Assembly (NCBI GenBank): GCA_018396865.1
Contig: JAGTRB010000003.1
Span: 8,575 to 72,574 of the forward strand
Direction of reading: 5' to 3'
From: Candidatus Bathyarchaeota archaeon
GTDB lineage: Archaea > Thermoproteota > Bathyarchaeia > TCS64
DNA length: 64,000 nucleotides
Shown here one piece after another: positions 8,164 to 29,950 of the stretch. Numbering within the stretch: position 1 is the first letter of the stretch; every line of letters begins with the position of its first letter. The position numbers and the translations under genes were made by a program. The notes under the pieces are model-generated. The model did not search any database and was not told where the DNA came from. It saw only the letters and a list, made by a program, of their open reading frames with translations.

Positions 8164-9006
8164 TTATTCTGCCTCAGCGGTTGCTGCTATGGTGATGGCG
8201 GCCCGTAGACCCCTTAGAGCCGTGGGATAATCGTTGAAGACGGCTTTCAGCGTTCTTCCATCTACCCTCTCGATGTAGGGGAGCACAGCTGCGGCGTCGG
8301 CCATCGACGGTGTGACGACCCTTAGCCTGAACTCAGTGGGTTCGGCAATCCTATAGGGTTTGATCTCTTTAGAGCTAGCTAATGCCTCGGCCACTGTCTT
8401 CTCGATGAGGGCCCTCGCCTTCTCAGGATGGAGGCACCTTGCAGAATATCTGCCTACACCCCACTTGACGATGGCTGTCTTGATCCCGGGAACCAAGCTC
8501 CTAGCCTCGGCGGCTACTGCTGAGTCTCCTGAGATGAATACAGATGGGACTCCGTACCAGCCTGCGAGGGCGGAGTTCAGGCCGAACTCCCCTGTCTCGA
8601 GGCCATTGATATATATGGCGTCAACAGTCCTACTCGAGATCGTATGGCATAGTATGCCATTTCTGGTGCCGTTCATAGCGTGGTATCCCACGTACAGGGC
8701 GGCGTCAAAGCTCCCATCGATCCCCTCCATCATAGATAGGGGCTTTGGCGAGCCCCTCACCAGCTGGGCTGCCTCGTGGACCTCCTCTGGCTGGAGGTTT
8801 CTCATCCTCCCATGGGCGTCGGAGACCACAACCTCATCAGCGCCAGCCTTGAGGGCCCCCTCAACCGCCGCGTTCAGGTCTCCCACCATGAGTTTTCTTC
8901 CCACCCCATACTCCTGGGGGTCACGGCCCACCTGGGACCAGTCGACTATCCCGCTGACCCCCTCCATATCTATGGAAATGAAAACCCTCTTGGGCTTCTC
9001 AACCAT
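8164..9006 (-). CDS. dppA: D-aminopeptidase DppA-like (peptidase M55)
   Basis: N-terminal 'RVFISIDMEGVSGIV', 'VVVSDAHG', 'YVGYHA' characteristic of M55. The antisense 228-aa ORF is S/P/T-rich and rejected. Confidence 0.85.
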   Translation of the reverse strand: MVEKPKRVFISIDMEGVSGIVDWSQVGRDPQEYGVGRKLMVGDLNAAVEGALKAGADEVVVSDAHGRMRNLQPEEVHEAAQLVRGSPKPLSMMEGIDGSFDAALYVGYHAMNGTRNGILCHTISSRTVDAIYINGLETGEFGLNSALAGWYGVPSVFISGDSAVAAEARSLVPGIKTAIVKWGVGRYSARCLHPEKARALIEKTVAEALASSKEIKPYRIAEPTEFRLRVVTPSMADAAAVLPYIERVDGRTLKAVFNDYPTALRGLRAAITIAATAEAE

Positions 9007-20127: not shown

Positions 20128-20203
20128 GGGCTGGTAGATCAGTGGTATGATCGCCGCCTTGGCAGGGCGGAAGTCGCGGGTTCAAATCCCGCCCAGTCCA
20201 CCA
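20128..20203 (+). tRNA. tRNA-Ala (anticodon GGC), CCA encoded
   Basis: Hand-folded cloverleaf: acceptor GGGCTGG/CCAGTCC with the G3:U70 alanine identity pair, D-arm GATC/GATC, anticodon stem CCGCC/GGCGG with loop TTGGCAG, T-arm GCGGG-TTCAAAT-CCCGC, discriminator A, CCA. Confidence 0.9.
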
Positions 20204-21483: not shown

Positions 21484-21788
21484 ATCAATTCAATGAATGT
21501 TATATCCACCAGATTTATTTAAAACAATGCCTAAAACCTACCTTAGTGGGTTTATAAACCCAAACTCTATTCTCCGTTAGAATTATCCTTCCATATGAAG
21601 AACTCATTATATCCCCCGAAACCAACCATTAATGTCGAGAGTGGGGCTTGTAATCTGGGTCTCCAATCGGGCCCATGTTGCTCACCCCGTGAAATAGGCT
21701 GCGGAGGCAACCTTAGAGGAGATGGATTGTTAAGTTTTAATTCGCAATCCTTTTAAATATGATGAATCCCTTATACTAAAGGAGACAA

Positions 21789-22769
21789 ATGAAAACAAAA
21801 ATAACTTTAATATGCTTCATTATGATATCAATATCAATTATGACAATTCCATCTTATTGTGCAGAGGAGGGGGGATGGATCTTATGGTATAAGGTGGAAG
21901 ACTTAAAGACGAAAAAGCTGATACTAGAAAAAGATCTTATTACAGGAAATGAAAAAATCTATGAATCTATATTTAGTGGTGCAGAATATAACGTGACTAT
22001 TTTTTTCAATATAGCGGTAACTGTACCCCGATCTGTTTTGAAAATTAATACATCATTAGAACGTGCAAGCTTGTTAGATAGGTTTTGGGAGCTTCACACT
22101 AAAGATTACCCCGTGGTTAATTATAATCCAAGTGAAAAAGTTGTAAGGTTTAATCAGGTTAAAGGAAACCTTACAATATCTATGTACGGAAGAATTCCTC
22201 AAAATATAACAGAAAAAACATTTAATGGATATGTTTTTAATAAGGCGGTTGATTATATTGTTTTAGAGTTAAGGGGTCCAAATGATGAAATGTTAGATAA
22301 TATCTCTTTCAAAGTGATAGATTCAAAGATTAATGAATATCAAAATTTGTTAAGGTCAAAAGAAAATGATTTAAAAAACATTAAAAATCAGGGAGTAATT
22401 AGTTCATATGTTAAACTATATGAAAAAATGTTAAACCAAGCAAAGGTTGAGGCTGAGATGGGATTTGTAGATAACGCCATAAAAATATTGAATTTATTGT
22501 CTATAGAAGGGGCTCCAAAAGAACCGACCCCCTCAATTTTAGAAATATTATTTTACCCTACTGTTTTGATATTGGTGGGTGTGATAGCATTTACTGGATT
22601 TATGTTTCAAAGAAGTAGAGGTAAATTGAATTATACCTTAATGGTGGTTGAAGAACAAGTTAAAGAGTTAGAGGGTCTTGGAGTTAGATTATCTAAAATA
22701 GATAAGAATATTTCGTCAAATCTAGAAGGTATTAAAGATAGGCTGAAAAGGTTGGTTGGGGTGTCCTGA
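21789..22769 (+). CDS. Island ORF A: type-I membrane protein (signal peptide, ~220-aa ectodomain, TM, cytoplasmic coiled-coil tail)
   Basis: Signal 'MKTKITLICFIMISISIMTIPSYCA'. Five sequons (NVT, NTS, NLT, NIT, NIS). TM 'ILFYPTVLILVGVIAFTGFMF' then 'QRSRGK'. Tail 'EEQVKELEGLGVRLSKIDKNISSNLEGIKDRLKRL'. AGGAG 6 nt before the ATG. 14-nt overlap with ORF B. Confidence 0.7.
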   Translation: MKTKITLICFIMISISIMTIPSYCAEEGGWILWYKVEDLKTKKLILEKDLITGNEKIYESIFSGAEYNVTIFFNIAVTVPRSVLKINTSLERASLLDRFWELHTKDYPVVNYNPSEKVVRFNQVKGNLTISMYGRIPQNITEKTFNGYVFNKAVDYIVLELRGPNDEMLDNISFKVIDSKINEYQNLLRSKENDLKNIKNQGVISSYVKLYEKMLNQAKVEAEMGFVDNAIKILNLLSIEGAPKEPTPSILEILFYPTVLILVGVIAFTGFMFQRSRGKLNYTLMVVEEQVKELEGLGVRLSKIDKNISSNLEGIKDRLKRLVGVS

Positions 22770-25425
22770 TTTGTCAAAACAGCCCTCTAACATAATTCAC
22801 CTAATAGGTTTAGGTTCAGCGGGGACGAATATAGTTGAAGCCTTTATTTCAAGTAAGAAAACCATGAACTTATTAGAAAATGAAAATACTCGCTTATCAC
22901 TTTTAGCTATAGATGTTGCAGATCCAGATATCAGAAGTTTACAGGAAACATATAGTAAAATATTAAAAGAGATGAAAGATAAAGGTATACCTAAAGAAAG
23001 AATTTCTCTCATAGCTCAATCCATAAAATTTCCAACTGCTGAAGCTATGTTTGATTTTATAAATGAAAAATATAAAGATCATTTAATTAGCGAGGGTGTA
23101 AATCTCAAGGAATATTCTTCATGGTTACCTTCAACAATGGCTATACCACCTCTGGCGGGAGGTGCCGGTAGGAGAAGAGCTCTGGCTAAGGCGATATACG
23201 CCTTAAACTACTACCAACTTGGAATCATAAGAAACTTCTTGAACTCCTTCAAGGAACAAGCCCTCTCATCGATAATGACCCCAATAGTCATAATCATATA
23301 TGGGATAGGTGGAGGGACCGGAAGCGGGATAGCCTTCGAGTTCGCTAGGCACCTCAGGAAGGTTCTAGGTTCAGGGGTTCCGATCATAGGGATATCCATC
23401 CTTCCATGTAGGGGGGATGACCCACCCGCTAAGGGCTGCTCGGCCTACTCCTCTCTAACCGAACTCTCACTGCTGTTGAATAAGGATTACAACGATTATA
23501 TATGCAAGAATTATGGTGAATTCTATAGAAACCCCTTCAACGCATTTATATGCATTCCACTAACTCCAGCATATTCAAATACAGGAAACATAATAGTAGC
23601 TAGAAAAGATATTGATGAAATGATTATAGATATAATATATATGTTGATGGATTTTGATTTATCTGATCTATTAGGAGGAATTGGAACTGAAGTAGGGTTA
23701 ACAGAAAATTTTATTCATACTATAAGTATGACAAAGGTTGTTTATCCAGTAAATGAATATATTGATGCTTTTAAAATATACTTAGATAGAATTCAAACTT
23801 TATACGAATTCAGAAAAGAGAAACTTGAAATAATAAACAATATTAATGAAATATTGATGCTAAGATATGATGATATAAAGGAAATCCTAAAAATGTATTT
23901 GATAAGAACAGGAACTTATGTGGAAGAACAATTTGATGAAAAAATTAAAACTATCATTAGGAGTTCCTCTAGATTTAATGAGGATTATTGGTTATATATT
24001 AAAGGGGTTGAAGATCAGATAAAAAACTGGATTAGTGAATTGTCAAAATTTTTGACAACAATAAAATTGACAGCTAAAACTGGAACAATAGAAGATGCCA
24101 TTGTAAATTTAACACTTCACAAAGAGGAATCAAGAGAAATGGAAAATCTCGAAGATCTATTAACAAATATCACAAAAACATACATTGAATTTCCAGAAAA
24201 AAAGGGCATAATTTTTGAAAGGTTAAAACAGTTAATCCCAAGTTCACAAATACTCACAATCAGACAGAAAAGGATTTTAGACGATTTAATGAACATTACA
24301 GAAATTGTGGATAAAACGCTACAGATCTTTAAATTATACAATGAATCAAGGTTTTTAACAGAAACATTAATTAGATATTATTCAGCAATTCCTGAAACTG
24401 AAACAATTTCAAGGGAATTGAAAGAAATTAGAACAGAACTTACATGCTTATACTATCTTGTCCAATTAATTTTAAAAACTCCATTAGATGAGGCTAAAAT
24501 AATCGATGAAAATTTGACTTACCTTCAAGGAATAATTAATAAGATCAGGGATGAAATTAACATAATAAATGAAGAAATATTAAGAATGGAGGAATCAAAG
24601 AAGAGAAAAGAATTCGACCGAATAAAGTTTGAACAAGAAATTGGCAGGTTATTTGGAATAGGTAGAAGAAAATATATTAAAGAAAAACTGGCTAAGTTAG
24701 AAATTGATATAAAAAGAATCGAGGAAGAAAAATCTTATTTAGAGAAAAATGCCAAAGAGTATAATGATTTACTAAGATCTTATAACAACTTGATGAGAAA
24801 AATTGAGGTCACTTCCGATTACAGAAGAAAGTTGAACAAGATCATAGAGTTACATAGAGCTTATCAAGATAAGATATCCGATATTCTTAAACCAAAAAAA
24901 TATTTTGAAAAGACTACTGAACTAACTGAAACGGAACAAGTAAAAATTGTATATAAAATTCTAGCAGAACAAGAGGAAGAATTATCAAGAGAAGGTATTT
25001 TGAAAGAAATTCTTGACATTGATCATTTTAAAGATTATATGAAAAGTGTGATAAGGATTTTCAGGACTCCAAGTTTTATGGGGCTAAATACATCATTTAA
25101 ATCAGATTACATATGGGTTACAGTTCAGACCCCTCAGGGTCTTTGGAATGAAGATTTAACTCAAGAGATTTACACCGTTCTTGCAGGATATATTGTGGGA
25201 GAAGTATCAAGAAATGTTACAATTAGGATAATAGATTCAAGGGATCCATGGACGATAAGGATTCTTGTTGTAGGTGGAAGAGGAAAACCTATGAATTTAG
25301 AAACATATGATGAAATGCAGGCGCTTTACATTAAATCAACAGAATTCGAAAAACAACTTTCTAGATCCTTTTTAATTGAACATGGAATCAACATTGAGAA
25401 CATTATCGATAAAATTAATGATTAG
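22756..25425 (+). CDS. Island ORF B: tubulin/FtsZ-superfamily GTPase with a very long coiled-coil region (889 aa)
   Basis: T1-like 'LIGLGSAGTNIVEAF' (nt 22807-22830 for GLGSAGTN). T3-like 'LAGGAGRRRALAKA'. Exact tubulin signature 'GGGTGSG' (nt 23308-23328). T7-like 'MDFDLSD'. K/E/I/L heptad-rich aa ~340-760. C-terminal 'YIWVTVQTPQGL...TIRILVVGGRG'. Start is TTG at 22756 or 22771. Confidence 0.8.
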   Translation: MGCPDLSKQPSNIIHLIGLGSAGTNIVEAFISSKKTMNLLENENTRLSLLAIDVADPDIRSLQETYSKILKEMKDKGIPKERISLIAQSIKFPTAEAMFDFINEKYKDHLISEGVNLKEYSSWLPSTMAIPPLAGGAGRRRALAKAIYALNYYQLGIIRNFLNSFKEQALSSIMTPIVIIIYGIGGGTGSGIAFEFARHLRKVLGSGVPIIGISILPCRGDDPPAKGCSAYSSLTELSLLLNKDYNDYICKNYGEFYRNPFNAFICIPLTPAYSNTGNIIVARKDIDEMIIDIIYMLMDFDLSDLLGGIGTEVGLTENFIHTISMTKVVYPVNEYIDAFKIYLDRIQTLYEFRKEKLEIINNINEILMLRYDDIKEILKMYLIRTGTYVEEQFDEKIKTIIRSSSRFNEDYWLYIKGVEDQIKNWISELSKFLTTIKLTAKTGTIEDAIVNLTLHKEESREMENLEDLLTNITKTYIEFPEKKGIIFERLKQLIPSSQILTIRQKRILDDLMNITEIVDKTLQIFKLYNESRFLTETLIRYYSAIPETETISRELKEIRTELTCLYYLVQLILKTPLDEAKIIDENLTYLQGIINKIRDEINIINEEILRMEESKKRKEFDRIKFEQEIGRLFGIGRRKYIKEKLAKLEIDIKRIEEEKSYLEKNAKEYNDLLRSYNNLMRKIEVTSDYRRKLNKIIELHRAYQDKISDILKPKKYFEKTTELTETEQVKIVYKILAEQEEELSREGILKEILDIDHFKDYMKSVIRIFRTPSFMGLNTSFKSDYIWVTVQTPQGLWNEDLTQEIYTVLAGYIVGEVSRNVTIRIIDSRDPWTIRILVVGGRGKPMNLETYDEMQALYIKSTEFEKQLSRSFLIEHGINIENIIDKIND

Positions 25426-25459
25426 AAAATTATAAGAATATTAATTCATAATAATTTCA

Positions 25460-26590
25460 CTACAAATCATGGTTTACTAAACTCAAAATATCTTTTAATT
25501 TTACTTCATCTATTATACCTTTTTTGGTTAAATACTCAATTGTTTCTCGGGCTTTCTCTTCTAATGAATTCAAAATTTTTTCTTCATTAAAACCTCCAAC
25601 TATAATCATAATATCTATTCTATCATTTACTTCGTTTATAAAGATGGGATCACTAATGTATATTACTTTTGGACTTGATTTTTCTCTTATCCATCTTATA
25701 AAAGCTGATTCGAGTTTTTCTTTGGTGATCTCTCCTCTTAATTTAACTGGAATCCTAGCTAATACATAAAAAATATATGACTCTTTTAAATCAAAATTTA
25801 AGAGCATTCTATATAACATTGAATTAAATATATTTTCGAGTGAATCATAAATTTTCAGGCTGCAACCAGTAGAAATCAATATCGTATATAATTTGATATC
25901 GAAGTATTTTGAAAATCTCATAAAATCATTCACAAAACCCTCTTTAGATAACATCAATTCTAAAATTTCATTCAGGATCATGCCCCCTTTAATTAAATTA
26001 CCTTTCCTGTCAACTCCAACATAGTCTTCCAGAAGGTCTCTGTTTATTATAAAGATTGGATAACATCCTTTATTTATGCACATGGCTATTGATGATATAG
26101 AATTAAAATGGGCATCGGAAGGTTGTTCTGGAGATGGTATCAAAGCTATAGGGATCGAATCTATTCTCCATTCCATTAACTTTGACGTTATATATGGAAA
26201 AAGACCACCTCCAACTCCATCCCATGTAGATGAAACTATTAATCCAGATTTTACCTTATGTAAAAGATTATCTTTTAAATCTAAATCTAATGACCTCCTA
26301 TTTTCAATATATTCATAAATATTAAAACAAAAATGTTCATCGAGATTATGGTCAACATCTATAAAACTAAAAAAATCTATTTTCTTAATGAAATTTTCCA
26401 TGAATAATTCACTTTTCTTACCAATAAAGAGAAACAAAATATCGTTAGATAATTTAAACAATGAATTTTTTAACAAAATATTGTTTGTATATCCACCTAA
26501 ACTTATGGATCCCCTTTCCGGTATCCTGAGTTTTAATAACCTAATATGCCCCAAAACACTTTCAAGTACATCAAATGACTCTATATTCAT
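25460..26590 (-). CDS. Island ORF C: divergent FtsZ-like protein with degenerate GTP-binding loops (376 aa)
   Basis: Collinear by eye with FtsZ: 'ILFLFIGKKSELFMENF' (T1 position, glycines lost), 'IVSSTWDGVGGGLFPYITSKL' (T4; nt 26201-26221 for DGVGGGL), 'IALIPSPEQPSD', 'IFIINRDLLEDY', 'NDFMRF', 'YVLARIPVKLRGEITKEKLE', 'IDIMIIVGGF'. Confidence 0.65.
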   Translation of the reverse strand: MNIESFDVLESVLGHIRLLKLRIPERGSISLGGYTNNILLKNSLFKLSNDILFLFIGKKSELFMENFIKKIDFFSFIDVDHNLDEHFCFNIYEYIENRRSLDLDLKDNLLHKVKSGLIVSSTWDGVGGGLFPYITSKLMEWRIDSIPIALIPSPEQPSDAHFNSISSIAMCINKGCYPIFIINRDLLEDYVGVDRKGNLIKGGMILNEILELMLSKEGFVNDFMRFSKYFDIKLYTILISTGCSLKIYDSLENIFNSMLYRMLLNFDLKESYIFYVLARIPVKLRGEITKEKLESAFIRWIREKSSPKVIYISDPIFINEVNDRIDIMIIVGGFNEEKILNSLEEKARETIEYLTKKGIIDEVKLKDILSLVNHDL

Positions 26591-26637
26591 CAGGTCACGA
26601 AGTAAACTTTTAAAGGCCTTTCAAATAAATATTTTGA
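26591..26637. promoter_or_regulatory. 47-bp divergent intergenic region with back-to-back TATA-like elements around palindrome AAAGGCCTTT
   Basis: Perfect 10-bp palindrome at 26612-26621 flanked by TTTTAAA / TTTCAAA(TAAATATTTT). Each A/T box lies within roughly 10-30 nt of the ATG it faces (ORF C 26590, ORF D 26638). Confidence 0.4.
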
Positions 26638-28992
26638 ATGAAGGCCATGCCCCAATTGCATGATTCAGCTAAATTCAACCAAAGACTCATTAAAATTTTT
26701 ACTTTTTCAGTTTCTTTTGCCGCTCTTAGTATGGGTCTTTCCTTCATTCCACTTCTCCCTCAACCTATACCATTGATAATATCTTTCATCATTTCATTTT
26801 TAATACTGAATAATCGCAGAGAAGGAATGATCATAGGAAGCTTTCTAATTGGATTAGGATTAATATATCATATGAGTCGAATAAACCTCATATTGATACT
26901 GGGAAGCACTGAAACTAAACTACTTTTTTTAAGTATTTTAATCGTTTTTTTTCTATTCACTCCAATAATTGCAAAAATATATGAAGATATTATAGCTATT
27001 TCTGTTGGAATCATAGCTGCCTCAATGCTTTTTTTCAATCAAACCTACTTTTTCGCAATACCCCTTATAATAGTTTTCGCAGGGATATACAAAAAACAAA
27101 GGATATGGCTAACATTATCATATTATGCAGTTATATCGATTCCCATACAAATAATGCAATACATAAAGTACATATACAATGAAGAATATCACACTCCGCC
27201 CCCTTTATATGTTCCATTATTAGAAATCTTTAATGATATACAGGAATCAATGAAAAAAATAAGCATAAATGAAATATCAAGAGTTTTAGAGATTATTGCT
27301 GGGCAGTTTAAATCGAGAACAGATTCATCTCTAAGATTTATGATAAATGCCATATCTGAATATTTAAACTCATTTCCAGGAGTTATTTTCTTTTTGATAA
27401 TAATGTTCAGCCTTGTTTCCATAACCGCCTACATAATCTCCAATTCATTAAAAATTATCGAAAGCATGGAGATAACAAAAAAATATTCAAAATTCCTAGA
27501 AATATTTTTCTCAGTTATCACTGTAACGATAATTACAACACTCTTCTATATATTTCTTATAATCCTTCAAGAACCATTATCCTACATGGCGGAAATAAAT
27601 ATTTTCAACATGATGATGGGCATTATTGGAACATTTATAACTACGATCCCAATTTCCTTCATAAATTATGAGATGAAAATCAGTACGATAATAGAAAAGC
27701 GATCAGAAATAATAAGAAGAAAATCTGAAAAATTTATAGAAAATTTGAAAGACTTCAATGAATTAATGAGAAAAATTAGTAACAATATTCCGATTAAGAT
27801 TGACTCACTCATAAGTGAGGCTGCTTCGATTAAGGAAAAACTTGTAGATATATTGGATAATATAGAATATGGAGTTTATGGGTTAAATGAATTGGAAAGA
27901 AAAATTTTAGCAATAGATACTGAAATAAATGATGAAGTATTAAATTTATACAAAAAATTAAATACTTTGTTGAATGAATATTATAGGAACGAGAGTTATG
28001 AGTTTAACACATTGCTAGATAATTATAAAAAAATAGGAATAGAAATAAAAGATGAGATATTTATAAATTATAAAGATGATGAAGAAATAGAAGCAAAAAT
28101 AGAGAAAATAAGGATGATTCTAAATAAAGAATGGAAATTGACTGAAAAAATTACAGGAACATATGAAAAAATATATAACATACTAAGAAATTATTATGAT
28201 CCTTCGCTTCCAGAAGAAAATTCTACTTTGACTATTGCAAAACAAAAGATTCAAGAAAGACAGTTTCCATGCGTTATCCTAGAGGCAATATATATTTCGA
28301 TTAACAATCTAGAAACGCAATACTCAAAGGAAATAACTAATACCTTAAATAGGTTAATTGAACTAATGGGTTCAACAAAAAAAATTTATACAAATAATGA
28401 AAAATCAAAGATTTTATGCAACGAAATTAATGATAGATTAATTGCAATTGAAAAAAAGGTGAATAATTTAAAAGAGATATTAGAGGAAAATGTTTTCAAG
28501 ATAACTAAGATAATAGAAGTAAATGAAATTGTAAATGATTATATAAAAGTTTACAAAGAGATATTTCAAATTATATATGATGAAATAACCCTAAAAGAAA
28601 ATCACATAGAAAAATTAGCTATCAATGAAGGAATAAAATTTATTAAAAACGATCAAGTAAAAGATAAAATAATTTATATTTTAGAAATTCTAAGAAAGCT
28701 CCCTATTTATAATATCAATGAAACTATTACTAATTTAGAAAAGTTTTTAATGCAGGTTGATGAATGTTTCGAAATTATATTTAATTATAATGAAACGGAG
28801 GAAATCCTACTGAACTATGAGATTTCAGAATCAATAATGAAAAAATTATTAAAAGAAAAGGGATTAATAAAAATAAATGAACTTCCATTCAAAGAAGAAA
28901 TTGCAAGAAAATATATGGAGATTTACAGTGAGAAGCATAAAAAAGATGTGTTATATGATAGTGAGAAATTGATAATTTATCGAAGGGATTAA
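26638..28992 (+). CDS. Island ORF D: ~10-TM membrane protein with ~440-aa cytoplasmic coiled-coil/helical tail (784 aa)
   Basis: Hydrophobic helices through aa ~340 (e.g. 'FTFSVSFAALSMGLSFIPLL', 'VIFFLIIMFSLVSITAYII', 'IFNMMMGIIGTFITTIPISFI'), then K/E/I/N-rich heptad-like sequence to the end. Confidence 0.75.
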   Translation: MKAMPQLHDSAKFNQRLIKIFTFSVSFAALSMGLSFIPLLPQPIPLIISFIISFLILNNRREGMIIGSFLIGLGLIYHMSRINLILILGSTETKLLFLSILIVFFLFTPIIAKIYEDIIAISVGIIAASMLFFNQTYFFAIPLIIVFAGIYKKQRIWLTLSYYAVISIPIQIMQYIKYIYNEEYHTPPPLYVPLLEIFNDIQESMKKISINEISRVLEIIAGQFKSRTDSSLRFMINAISEYLNSFPGVIFFLIIMFSLVSITAYIISNSLKIIESMEITKKYSKFLEIFFSVITVTIITTLFYIFLIILQEPLSYMAEINIFNMMMGIIGTFITTIPISFINYEMKISTIIEKRSEIIRRKSEKFIENLKDFNELMRKISNNIPIKIDSLISEAASIKEKLVDILDNIEYGVYGLNELERKILAIDTEINDEVLNLYKKLNTLLNEYYRNESYEFNTLLDNYKKIGIEIKDEIFINYKDDEEIEAKIEKIRMILNKEWKLTEKITGTYEKIYNILRNYYDPSLPEENSTLTIAKQKIQERQFPCVILEAIYISINNLETQYSKEITNTLNRLIELMGSTKKIYTNNEKSKILCNEINDRLIAIEKKVNNLKEILEENVFKITKIIEVNEIVNDYIKVYKEIFQIIYDEITLKENHIEKLAINEGIKFIKNDQVKDKIIYILEILRKLPIYNINETITNLEKFLMQVDECFEIIFNYNETEEILLNYEISESIMKKLLKEKGLIKINELPFKEEIARKYMEIYSEKHKKDVLYDSEKLIIYRRD

Positions 28993-28993
28993 A

Positions 28994-29908
28994 ATGCATT
29001 CATATCAGGGATATAAACAAGGTATAGGCGATATCAAATTAAATATATTTGATGATAGAATCGAAATATACCATGAAAAAGGGTATATAAAAAAGAGTAA
29101 AAAAATTTTAAAGGTAATTTATTTCTCAGAAATCGATAAAATTGAAACTAATAATAATGAGCTAATTATTTATTTTACTAACAATGAAATATATAATATA
29201 ATTTTTCAACAAAGAGAATCATTGAATAATATTTATGAAGTTTTGATAGATATCTTCTCGAAAGTAAACGATAATGCAAACCAAAAAATTTGTGGAACTA
29301 TGTTAGCCGATATAACTAAAAAATCTATTTATTTAATAGATCTTTTGTTCGACGTCATTTTAAACTTAAATGGTAAAATTGTCTGGAAAAATTTAGAAAA
29401 AAATTTAAAAGATATAAAGGAAGTTTATCAAGGAATTAAATCAACTTATAACAAATTTGTGGATCTCGATTTTAAGGAGATGGAGCGAAATATAGTTGAT
29501 CGTAATCCTGAAAAGATCCCTATGAATGTGTTTAATTTTATAAAAATGATATTGTCTTTTTATAGGAGTTTGGATAAAATTGATGATAAAGATTTAATTA
29601 TTTTGAAATCTAAATTTTTAGATTTTTTAATGATTGTTGAATCTGCTGTCTTATTAAATGATATAATCCTTGGTATAATTATAGGAGATGGACATGTCAA
29701 TGAAGAAATTGAGGTTTTTATCAATCTGACAAATTCACTATCTAAAAAAATTAATATTACTATAGAAAGAATTTATATAATAAATTTATTCGAGGAACTA
29801 AAATTTAAAGCAAAAGATTATCAAATAATAAATAAAATTAGGGATTTCTTGAAGGATCTAGCCATGAGATATTTATCTGAGGAGGGATCAAGGGTCTCCC
29901 TTCTATGA
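28994..29908 (+). CDS. Island ORF E: soluble 304-aa protein (beta-rich N-domain, helical C-domain)
   Basis: ATG 1 nt after the ORF D stop (TAA-A-ATG). N-terminal 'DRIEIYHEKGYIKKSKKILKVIYFSEIDKIETNNNELIIYFTNNEIYNIIF' looks like a small PH/GRAM-like beta sandwich (weak). The rest is helical. Confidence 0.6.
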   Translation: MHSYQGYKQGIGDIKLNIFDDRIEIYHEKGYIKKSKKILKVIYFSEIDKIETNNNELIIYFTNNEIYNIIFQQRESLNNIYEVLIDIFSKVNDNANQKICGTMLADITKKSIYLIDLLFDVILNLNGKIVWKNLEKNLKDIKEVYQGIKSTYNKFVDLDFKEMERNIVDRNPEKIPMNVFNFIKMILSFYRSLDKIDDKDLIILKSKFLDFLMIVESAVLLNDIILGIIIGDGHVNEEIEVFINLTNSLSKKINITIERIYIINLFEELKFKAKDYQIINKIRDFLKDLAMRYLSEEGSRVSLL

Positions 29909-29950
29909 GCTTGGCTTGATTTTTAAGCTTCAGCCCCTCCTTTAATTTGG

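Follow-up and report, generated by a model that had tools for sequence, protein, structure and literature searches.

The 64,000-nucleotide (nt) stretch of DNA analysed here (hereafter the window; Candidatus Bathyarchaeota archaeon, assembly GCA_018396865.1, contig JAGTRB010000003.1, forward strand, positions 8,575 to 72,574) encodes, in open reading frame (ORF) B, the Bathyarchaeia form of the FtsZ-like-1 (FtsZl1; Pfam Tubulin_2) branch of the tubulin/FtsZ superfamily, a branch that has been described but not studied. ORF B probably has a split-domain architecture, in which the second, C-terminal domain of the tubulin/FtsZ fold is divided after its first strand, S7, and a helical module is extruded from the S7-H9 loop. 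The gene lies in a fixed cassette together with membrane proteins and a second protein of predicted tubulin fold. Taken as a whole, a split-domain ORF B working in a membrane-tethered filament system is the interpretation favoured here, with moderate confidence. The parts of ORF B on which the argument rests are listed below; residues are numbered on a form of 884 amino acids (aa), which is the numbering of an earlier reading made from the DNA letters alone (hereafter the sequence-only reading) minus 5.

22771..25425, + strand: ORF B, 884 aa, FtsZl1/Tubulin_2-type tubulin-superfamily GTPase with a helical insertion; an alternative start, TTG 22756, gives 889 aa.
22792..23649, + strand: GTPase (Rossmann-type) domain, aa 8-293, from AlphaFold2 (AF2) secondary structure, Pfam and Foldseek.
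23308..23328, + strand: T4 signature GGGTGSG, aa 180-186, read from the sequence, between S4 and H4.
23647..23667, + strand: T7-like acidic loop MDFDLSD, aa 293-299, after the H7-like helix 274-293 (AF2).
23713..23742, + strand: strand S7, aa 315-324, 'HTISMTKVVY', first strand of the C-domain, N-terminal of the insertion (AF2).
23746..25014, + strand: helical insertion of ~422 aa, aa ~326-748, from AF2 and its absence from compact homologues.
25015..25290, + strand: rest of the C-terminal domain, aa ~749-840, from AF2 and homology to the C-part of compact relatives.
25291..25422, + strand: C-terminal helices, aa 841-884, with the conserved motif 'LSRS(F/Y)LIEHG' (AF2 and homologues).

The N-terminal domain of ORF B is a tubulin/FtsZ-superfamily GTPase domain. 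The sequence-only reading had staked its proposal on this domain being recognised by tubulin/FtsZ profiles, and two Pfam profiles do recognise it above their cut-offs, Tubulin_2 (PF13809) with an E-value (E) of 2.2e-13 and 50.7 bits against a cut-off of 27, over profile positions 2-345 of 356 (aa 16-338 of the 889-aa form), and Tubulin (PF00091) with an E of 5.2e-10 and 40.4 bits against a cut-off of 33. In the AF2 model, which was built on 41 homologues and reached a predicted local distance difference test score (pLDDT) of 77.9 and a predicted template modelling score (pTM) of 0.70 for the whole chain, the domain comprises strands S1-S6, carries helical inserts specific to the family between S3 and S4 and ends in the long H7-like helix. 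Foldseek searches with this model retrieved TubZ, CetZ2, Odin tubulin, FtsZ and tubulins at a probability of 1.0 and E of 7e-5 to 1e-3, with template modelling (TM) scores, normalised on the target, of 0.4-0.5 across ~335 columns.

All of the motifs quoted in the sequence-only reading were found in the order quoted, with GGGTGSG at nt 23308-23328, and their placement agrees with the predicted secondary structure. The T1-like 'GLGSAGTN' follows S1, the T3-like 'AGGAGRRR' is conserved, and 'IIGISIL' forms S5, after which comes an invariant 'PCxGDDPPAKG'. In the T4 signature, G180-G182, G184, S185 and G186 are invariant among the 41 homologues and T183 is nearly so. The signature had been called exactly that of tubulin; the motif is indeed present, but its serine in place of threonine is not diagnostic of tubulins, the motif being written as GGGTG(S/T)G in the FtsZl1 family paper (Makarova & Koonin 2010, PMC2875224). 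In the T7-like loop, M293, F295, D296 and D299 are invariant across the same homologues. FtsZ carries the motif DFAD, which MDFDLSD resembles, and both the position and the chemistry of MDFDLSD fit a T7 loop, the element that in this superfamily activates GTP hydrolysis in the neighbouring subunit.

ORF B is not a canonical FtsZ, as it scores 14.5 bits against TIGR00065 (FtsZ equivalog), the cut-off of which is 295.2. A sequence search of the PDB with ORF B returned tubulins at an E of 1 or worse and revealed no close relation to eukaryote-type tubulin, artubulin or Odin tubulin, and when single sequences and profiles were compared with the PDB, no relative of known structure was found, apart from a match to the T4 motif of CetZ1. 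The best structural match was TubZ, the plasmid partition tubulin of Bacillus (Foldseek E 7e-5, probability 1.0), which resembles ORF B in its divergent sequence and in an extended helical element after the core. However, TubZ is a compact protein of ~400-480 aa whose C-domain is contiguous and which has one C-terminal helix; it works with TubR and tubC DNA, no such context being present at ORF B.

From aa 327 to ~765, ORF B is almost wholly helical in the AF2 model (pLDDT mostly 85-93), and the insertion comprises roughly a dozen helices, the longest of 40-56 residues. It is conserved across the family and absent from the compact homologues. Of the 420-aa coiled-coil insertion first proposed, the long helical stretch was recovered, at ~422 aa, while a coiled coil proper was neither shown nor excluded, because the home-made heptad score used as a test was unspecific and flagged nearly every I/L/K-rich protein of the compositional island around the gene; this score was discarded. 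Inside the insertion, a loop with the motif RLKQLIPSSQ..T..QK (aa 484-501, nt 24220-24273) is invariant in the 41 homologues and is a candidate partner-binding site; in relatives of 27-40% identity, only 'LT' is kept from this region.

The insertion is predicted to occupy the S7-H9 loop of the second domain, which corresponds to the tubulin M-loop, an element of lateral contact between protofilaments. In the ORF B model, a short helix (aa 297-303) lies between the T7-like loop and S7, and ~440 residues of helices separate S7 from S8. The segment aa ~749-840 comprises an H9-like helix (750-765), S8 (780-787), an H10-like helix (794-807), S9 (816-822) and S10 (828-838), so that the last ~130 aa of the protein form a beta-alpha-beta-beta arrangement plus helices. 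The order of elements after the T7-like loop is that of the FtsZ/tubulin second domain, S7-H9-S8-H10-S9-S10, with the S7-S8 region greatly enlarged.

An exhaustive search of 1.84 billion representative proteins returned only 159 clusters. Among these, compact proteins of ~470-590 aa match ORF B over aa 7-290 and again over aa 752-875 (the C-part), the two matches lying ~80 residues apart; the C-part match has independent E-values of 6.5e-11 in P0170, 7e-5 in P0190 and 4e-4 in P0213. Six more relatives of ~450-570 aa carry the C-part directly after the N-domain, and in P0206, a Tubulin_2 protein of 1069 aa, ~400 residues separate the N-domain from the same C-part. The compact proteins, annotated as 'tubulin-like domain-containing proteins' (~500-570 aa, mostly bacterial), resemble ORF B in their homologous N-domain (E 1e-30 to 1e-60) and in a C-part and a C-terminal 'HSWLLxxGV' motif that are collinear with ORF B if its insertion is disregarded. 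Unlike ORF B, they have neither the helical insertion nor the acidic DFDxxD motif, and they end in a cysteine (Cys)-rich C-terminal tail.

A hidden Markov model (HMM) was made from 202 Bathyarchaeia sequences after deletion of aa 329-745 (aa 1-328 plus 746-884 kept). This spliced HMM aligns collinearly to 134 compact proteins, at ~1e-55 for the N-part and 1e-9 to 1e-15 for the C-part, and in 13 of the 134 a single alignment runs across the junction (e.g., P0314, HMM positions 7-459, 229 bits). It places S7 of ORF B, 'HTISMTKVVYP', opposite 'WTVFDIAKYTHP' in the compact form, which continues with an 11-residue loop and then a 12-residue helix, 'KWREVISSWIEH', opposite 'HFKDYMKSVIRIF' of ORF B (aa 750-763); in the next aligned segment the compact 'FSGLKEGFKTEYI' (pattern 'FSGLKxGFKTDYI') stands opposite 'FMGLNTSFKSDYI' of ORF B. 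The extra material of ORF B therefore corresponds to aa ~326-748 (~422 aa), in the S7-H9 loop. A MAFFT E-INS-i alignment of the long and short forms was dropped for the boundaries, as it scattered the short linker over the insertion. At the end of the chain, the counterpart of 'LSRS(F/Y)LIEHG' in the compact relatives is 'HSWLL(D/E)xGV'. By these sequence comparisons, aa ~749-884 of ORF B were shown to be homologous to the domain that compact relatives carry immediately after their GTPase domain.

Coevolution was analysed by mean-field direct-coupling analysis (DCA) of the spliced-plus-compact alignment (335 sequences, 467 columns, 106,953 pairs). The first-ranked of all these pairs was 785-831 (S8-S10) and the second 323-831 (S7-S10), with the expected Rossmann contacts 172-206 (S4-S5) and 175-195 (S4-H4) ranked alongside. 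The two top pairs held ranks 1-6 under other weightings and ranks 2 and 3 in the compact clade alone, and within this clade the S7/S8/S10 pairs show size compensation (F-A, Y-S, L-T/V). Therefore, S7 and S8 are both neighbours of S10. The strand order of the FtsZ C-domain is reportedly 1-4-2-3. Since coevolution in the compact relatives couples S7, S10 and S8 like adjacent strands of a single sheet, S7 and aa 749-840 of ORF B would re-form one C-domain of the FtsZ/tubulin type. The sequence-only reading had the C-terminal domain displaced by the insertion; the compact relatives, the spliced HMM, DCA and the AF2 element order agree that the C-part belongs with the GTPase domain, but this domain is split after S7 and not displaced as a whole.

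Several observations weigh against the split-domain architecture. DCA of the Bathyarchaeia sequences alone recovered no known contact, and mutual information with average product correction on the 202 full-length Bathyarchaeia sequences returned clade-specific noise only (Neff80 = 33). Because the Bathyarchaeia-only alignment is too uniform, the coevolution signal is that of the compact clade and holds for ORF B itself by homology; in ORF B, the packing of aa 749-840 on S7 and on the H7-like helix is putative. Only one of the five AF2 models of ORF B reached a pLDDT of 78, the other four lying at 62-67, and the T3-like region was modelled at low confidence (pLDDT 42-50). In addition, ORF B has no Pfam FtsZ_C or Tubulin_C match, and hhalign of its C-part against the C-domain of ORF C, the second tubulin-fold protein of the cassette, was collinear but not significant (E 0.03-0.16).

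These last two results are also what would be found if the C-terminal ~135 aa were a globular domain of their own, with no relation to the FtsZ/tubulin C-domain. The fold would then be incomplete and not split, and the protein would consist of a truncated GTPase domain, a coiled-coil linker and an effector domain, as FtsZl1 was described in 2010. No sequence method ties the C-part to FtsZ_C or Tubulin_C, and the same was reported by Makarova & Koonin (PMC2875224). However, the compact relatives carry the C-part directly after the GTPase domain, and coevolution links the strand on the N-terminal side of the insertion to one on its C-terminal side. Furthermore, the succession of elements, beta-[alpha]-beta-alpha-beta-beta, and the arrangement of neighbouring strands, S7-S10-S8, are those said to characterise the FtsZ C-domain. 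An independent effector domain is thus considered very unlikely, and the split C-domain is retained.

The resemblance between the C-part and ORF C had first been proposed from an alignment by eye. Its register was reproduced as the best hhalign alignment, but its significance was not (C-part against ORF C, E 0.1-0.16). When the whole families were compared, hhalign aligned S4-T4-S5 only (E 0.018), and the broader spliced-plus-compact profile aligned to ORF C collinearly over 326 columns without reaching significance (E 0.034, probability 1.5%). Because these results are suggestive and not significant, homology between ORFs B and C beyond the common fold is not claimed.

The frame of ORF B is open without interruption from 22756 to 25425 on the + strand and measures 889 aa when counted from TTG 22756. 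The sequence-only reading had left open the choice between this codon and TTG 22771; the latter is the most likely start, giving 884 aa, because it has GGGGTG 8 nt upstream, the N-termini of homologues agree with it (the same ten residues precede 'LIGLG') and an identical database protein was called at 884 aa. The 120 best database matches of ORF B are all full-length (877-909 aa; 58-100% identity).

The FtsZl1 family was defined by an FtsZ-like N-domain followed by an extended coiled coil and a C-terminal domain, in 121 proteins with Huta_2051 of Halorhabdus utahensis as the type example (PMC2875224). Hence, the architecture of ORF B is not in itself unusual, as had been supposed, since its layout is already that of FtsZl1. 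That study aligned nothing beyond H5, reported a C-terminal part without similarity to FtsZ/tubulin C-domains and proposed for these proteins a novel polymerisation mode or none (PMC2875224). A 2023 survey set Tubulin_2 proteins aside as lacking FtsZ_C and Tubulin_C. Like ORF B, FtsZl1 proteins begin with an FtsZ-like GTPase domain that carries GGGTG(S/T)G and has inserts specific to the family between T1 and T4, continue with a long helical/coiled-coil region in the centre and end in a globular part, and genes for membrane proteins lie nearby; compared with FtsZl1 as described, T7, S7 and the split C-domain are identified here. Neither the Bathyarchaeia proteins nor this cassette were the subject of any paper found in the literature search, and the literature and the PDB together yielded no experimental study and no solved structure of a Tubulin_2 relative. 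The split-domain reading, the insertion at the M-loop position, the spread of the gene, the fixed A-B-C-D(-E) cassette and the tubulin fold of ORF C appear to be new.

Few branches of the tubulin/FtsZ superfamily are as divergent as FtsZl1/Tubulin_2. If the insertion does lie in the S7-H9 loop of a complete two-domain fold, the family could be interpreted mechanistically, as keeping canonical longitudinal contacts while its lateral face is modified. The compact bacterial relatives would then be natural 'minus-insertion' controls, and a precise deletion construct (aa ~326-748) would be defined.

The other four ORFs of the cassette are as follows.

21789..22769, + strand: ORF A, 326 aa, bitopic membrane protein, with a single base between its stop codon and the start of ORF B.
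25460..26590, - strand: ORF C, 376 aa, complete two-domain tubulin/FtsZ/CetZ-like fold (AF2 and Foldseek), convergent with ORF B.
26638..28992, + strand: ORF D, 784 aa, polytopic membrane protein, divergent from ORF C.
28994..29908, + strand: ORF E, 304 aa, fast-evolving and mostly soluble, starting 2 nt after ORF D.

ORF A is composed of an N-terminal signal or transmembrane segment (aa 7-25), an outside domain of ~220 aa, a transmembrane segment (aa 250-268) and a cytoplasmic helical tail of ~58 aa. ORF D has at least six hydrophobic segments in aa 1-310, followed by a soluble C-terminal part of ~450 aa, which is probably helical. No Pfam, NCBIfam or PADLOC family was found for ORFs A, D and E. 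The idea that the cassette is a defence system was rejected, as there was no PADLOC match.

A genome scan with one genome per species found a relative of ORF B in 201 genomes, and of the best 80 loci almost all are labelled Bathyarchaeia or Bathyarchaeota. The order A+ B+ C- D+ was present in all 63 loci with enough flanking DNA, with the ORF A homologue upstream of B on the same strand (63/63), ORF C downstream of B on the minus strand (63/63) and ORF D (63/63). Median identities to the window proteins are 34% for A, 58% for B, 35% for C and 28% for D. An ORF of 301-310 aa follows ORF D in the four loci with gene calls (L001-L004), and tblastn finds ORF E in 12 of the 63 loci. The cassette was seen once per scanned locus, in many different chromosomal neighbourhoods, and the genes around it vary by genome, being ribosomal protein operons in L001 and CdvA with a deacetylase in L004. 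In the window, the convergent stop codons of B and C are 34 bp apart (25426-25459), and C and D diverge from a 47-bp spacer (26591-26637), a spacing that implies three transcription units (A-B, C and D-E) with a very compact divergent promoter region. The constancy of this cassette, in which a second, hidden tubulin fold and two membrane proteins accompany ORF B, suggests an as yet unstudied cytoskeletal system of wide distribution in Bathyarchaeia; the literature search found no paper describing a tubulin-type cytoskeleton in this group.

The AlphaFold model of ORF C (pLDDT 85.5, pTM 0.86) retrieved CetZ 3zid at an E of 2e-15 in Foldseek and reached TM-scores of 0.74 with 4b46, 0.69-0.74 with CetZ1 and EcFtsZ, and 0.71 (query-normalised) with beta-tubulin, and the profile of its family matches CetZ over S4-S6 (E 0.0023). 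Like CetZ, the archaeal cell-shape tubulin-like protein, both of whose domains superpose on the model (TM-score 0.66-0.74), ORF C as modelled has a two-domain fold. However, in the T4 region it carries 'SSTWDGVGGG' in place of GGGTGSG, and 'GGY' replaces the T1 glycines. The family consensus reads 'iGEYP' (GEY/GGY) and 'SSTWDGxGS', W123 and G125 being the only invariant residues of the T4 region, and ORF C gave no match in Pfam, NCBIfam or PADLOC. Because the T1 glycines, GGGTGSG and a Pfam Tubulin match are missing, ORF C was not filed as a CetZ. From its sequence and model, it is taken to be a cryptic tubulin-fold partner that probably does not bind GTP in the canonical way.

A membrane-tethered filament system is proposed because ORF B is always flanked by A (bitopic), C (a tubulin fold without signature) and D (polytopic). 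ORF B would form a GTP-dependent head-to-tail protofilament, from which the helical module would project sideways as a built-in arm, since the S7-H9 loop is at the position of the tubulin M-loop, where lateral contact is made. The arms would either keep filaments at a distance from one another or bind to the cytoplasmic parts of A and D, and ORF C may co-assemble with the ORF B polymer or cap it. Such a system would act in shaping the envelope or membrane and not as the primary division ring. This filament-plus-tether function is put forward tentatively, as a plausible proposal. Polymerisation, GTPase activity, the interaction of B with C and binding to A or D are predictions, and the vWA, P-loop GTPase, OmpA and kinase genes of many FtsZl1 loci were not found among ORFs A, C, D and E. 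A role of FtsZl1 in membrane remodelling had been suggested from its vWA, GTPase, OmpA and kinase neighbours, and the vWA/P-loop GTPase/OmpA/Ser-Thr kinase context was reported for 'the majority' of FtsZl1 operons (PMC2875224). Hence, these partner genes are typical of FtsZl1 and not defining, and ORF B differs from FtsZl1 in its companions.

It has to be considered that ORF B may form no cytoskeletal filament at all and act instead as a GTPase switch, in the form of a dimer or oligomer with a helical stalk that would remodel the membrane together with A and D. Such a protein would be dynamin-like in logic and not in ancestry, and its T7-like loop would serve only in GTPase activation within the dimer. 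The layout, with a GTPase domain, a long helical module that returns to the G-domain and membrane partners, agrees with this scheme, as does the fact that the acidic DFDxxD motif is missing from the compact bacterial relatives; a filament-less FtsZl1 was also left open by Makarova & Koonin (PMC2875224). However, the T7-like motif is invariant in the Bathyarchaeia family, and a second tubulin-fold gene always adjoins ORF B. Moreover, to our knowledge, all characterised members of the tubulin/FtsZ superfamily polymerise head to tail. A GTPase switch of this kind is therefore held to be unlikely.

The filament proposal could be extended to a membrane-anchored two-tubulin cytoskeleton throughout Bathyarchaeia, in which B and C would co-assemble as a heterodimer or as a filament plus its cap. 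The comparison is with alpha/beta-tubulin, where, as in the cassette, two different tubulin-fold proteins are encoded side by side and one has a degenerate catalytic apparatus. The cassette would be an analogue of this pair with one partner catalytically degenerate, and the 422-residue arm at the M-loop would replace lateral contacts and couple the polymer to A and D, so that each B subunit would bring its own spacer or adaptor. The loop that holds the ORF B insertion (S7-H9) is indeed the M-loop of alpha/beta-tubulin, but it holds a helical domain of 422 aa instead of a short loop; in addition, ORF B has no Tubulin_C domain and no close sequence relation to these tubulins, and the B-C heterodimer is hypothetical. 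This extension is regarded as somewhat unlikely.

The cassette coincides with a sharp change in base composition.

21700..29950, no strand: compositional island of 23-35% guanine plus cytosine (GC) against 50-60% in the flanks, coinciding with the five-ORF cassette (8.2 kb).

Its borders are sharp, and the GC of the surrounding genome is about 50-58%. This contrast recurs, between the same flanks, in two related loci, L005 (88% nucleotide identity) and L006 (76-80%), and in this lineage the flanks are syntenic and the island has diverged about as much as they have. No GC contrast was found in 44 other Bathyarchaeia loci (44 of the 45 long loci match the GC of their host), and the nearest other homologues, 66-68% identical, come from genomes of ~38% GC. 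Most simply, the island would reflect an old xenologous replacement, in which the cassette gave way to a copy donated by a very AT-rich relative, and this copy has not ameliorated. The island has no bearing on the function of the ORF B protein.

The island would also be explained if the cassette were the cargo of a mobile element, for example a defence or partition module. In favour of such cargo, the cassette has 28% GC against 50-60% in the flanks, with sharp borders, and a tRNA-Ala gene lies 1.5 kb upstream; TubZ-type relatives are known to partition plasmids and phages. However, the cassette occurs once per scanned locus in many chromosomal neighbourhoods, relatives were found in 201 species genomes, the GC of the host is matched in 44 of the 45 long loci tested, and in the window lineage the locus is syntenic, with the cassette diverging like its flanks. 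The list of ORFs from 18 to 32 kb showed no evident integrase, though its flanking ORFs were given no family search. Mobile cargo is hence extremely improbable.

The tRNA-Ala(GGC) gene occupies 20128-20203, 1.5 kb upstream of the island border. Two contigs, L026 (DATGZD010000090.1) and L044 (DATHCJ010000009.1), are filed under bacterial metagenome-assembled genomes (Candidatus Sulfotelmatobacter and Limnocylindrales) and carry a Bathyarchaeia-type gene of 58-59% identity; both contigs are probably binning contaminants.

The P0190 family of compact relatives has at least 597 members, in Actinomycetota (Pseudonocardia, Rhodococcus and Carbonactinospora), Paenibacillus and others. In Pseudonocardia and Paenibacillus, the compact relatives occur in pairs of 501-511 aa and 549-551 aa (L085, 6060-9656; L086 and L087, 6049-9650), and in these two bacterial neighbourhoods, comprising three loci, a gene of ~100 aa lies between the two paralogues. 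Most of the paired paralogues end in a Cys-rich motif such as 'GECIWGCACWVVVP'. The neighbours of the pairs include CN_hydrolase genes and, in Paenibacillus, also CobW, CbtB and a sigma-54 activator.

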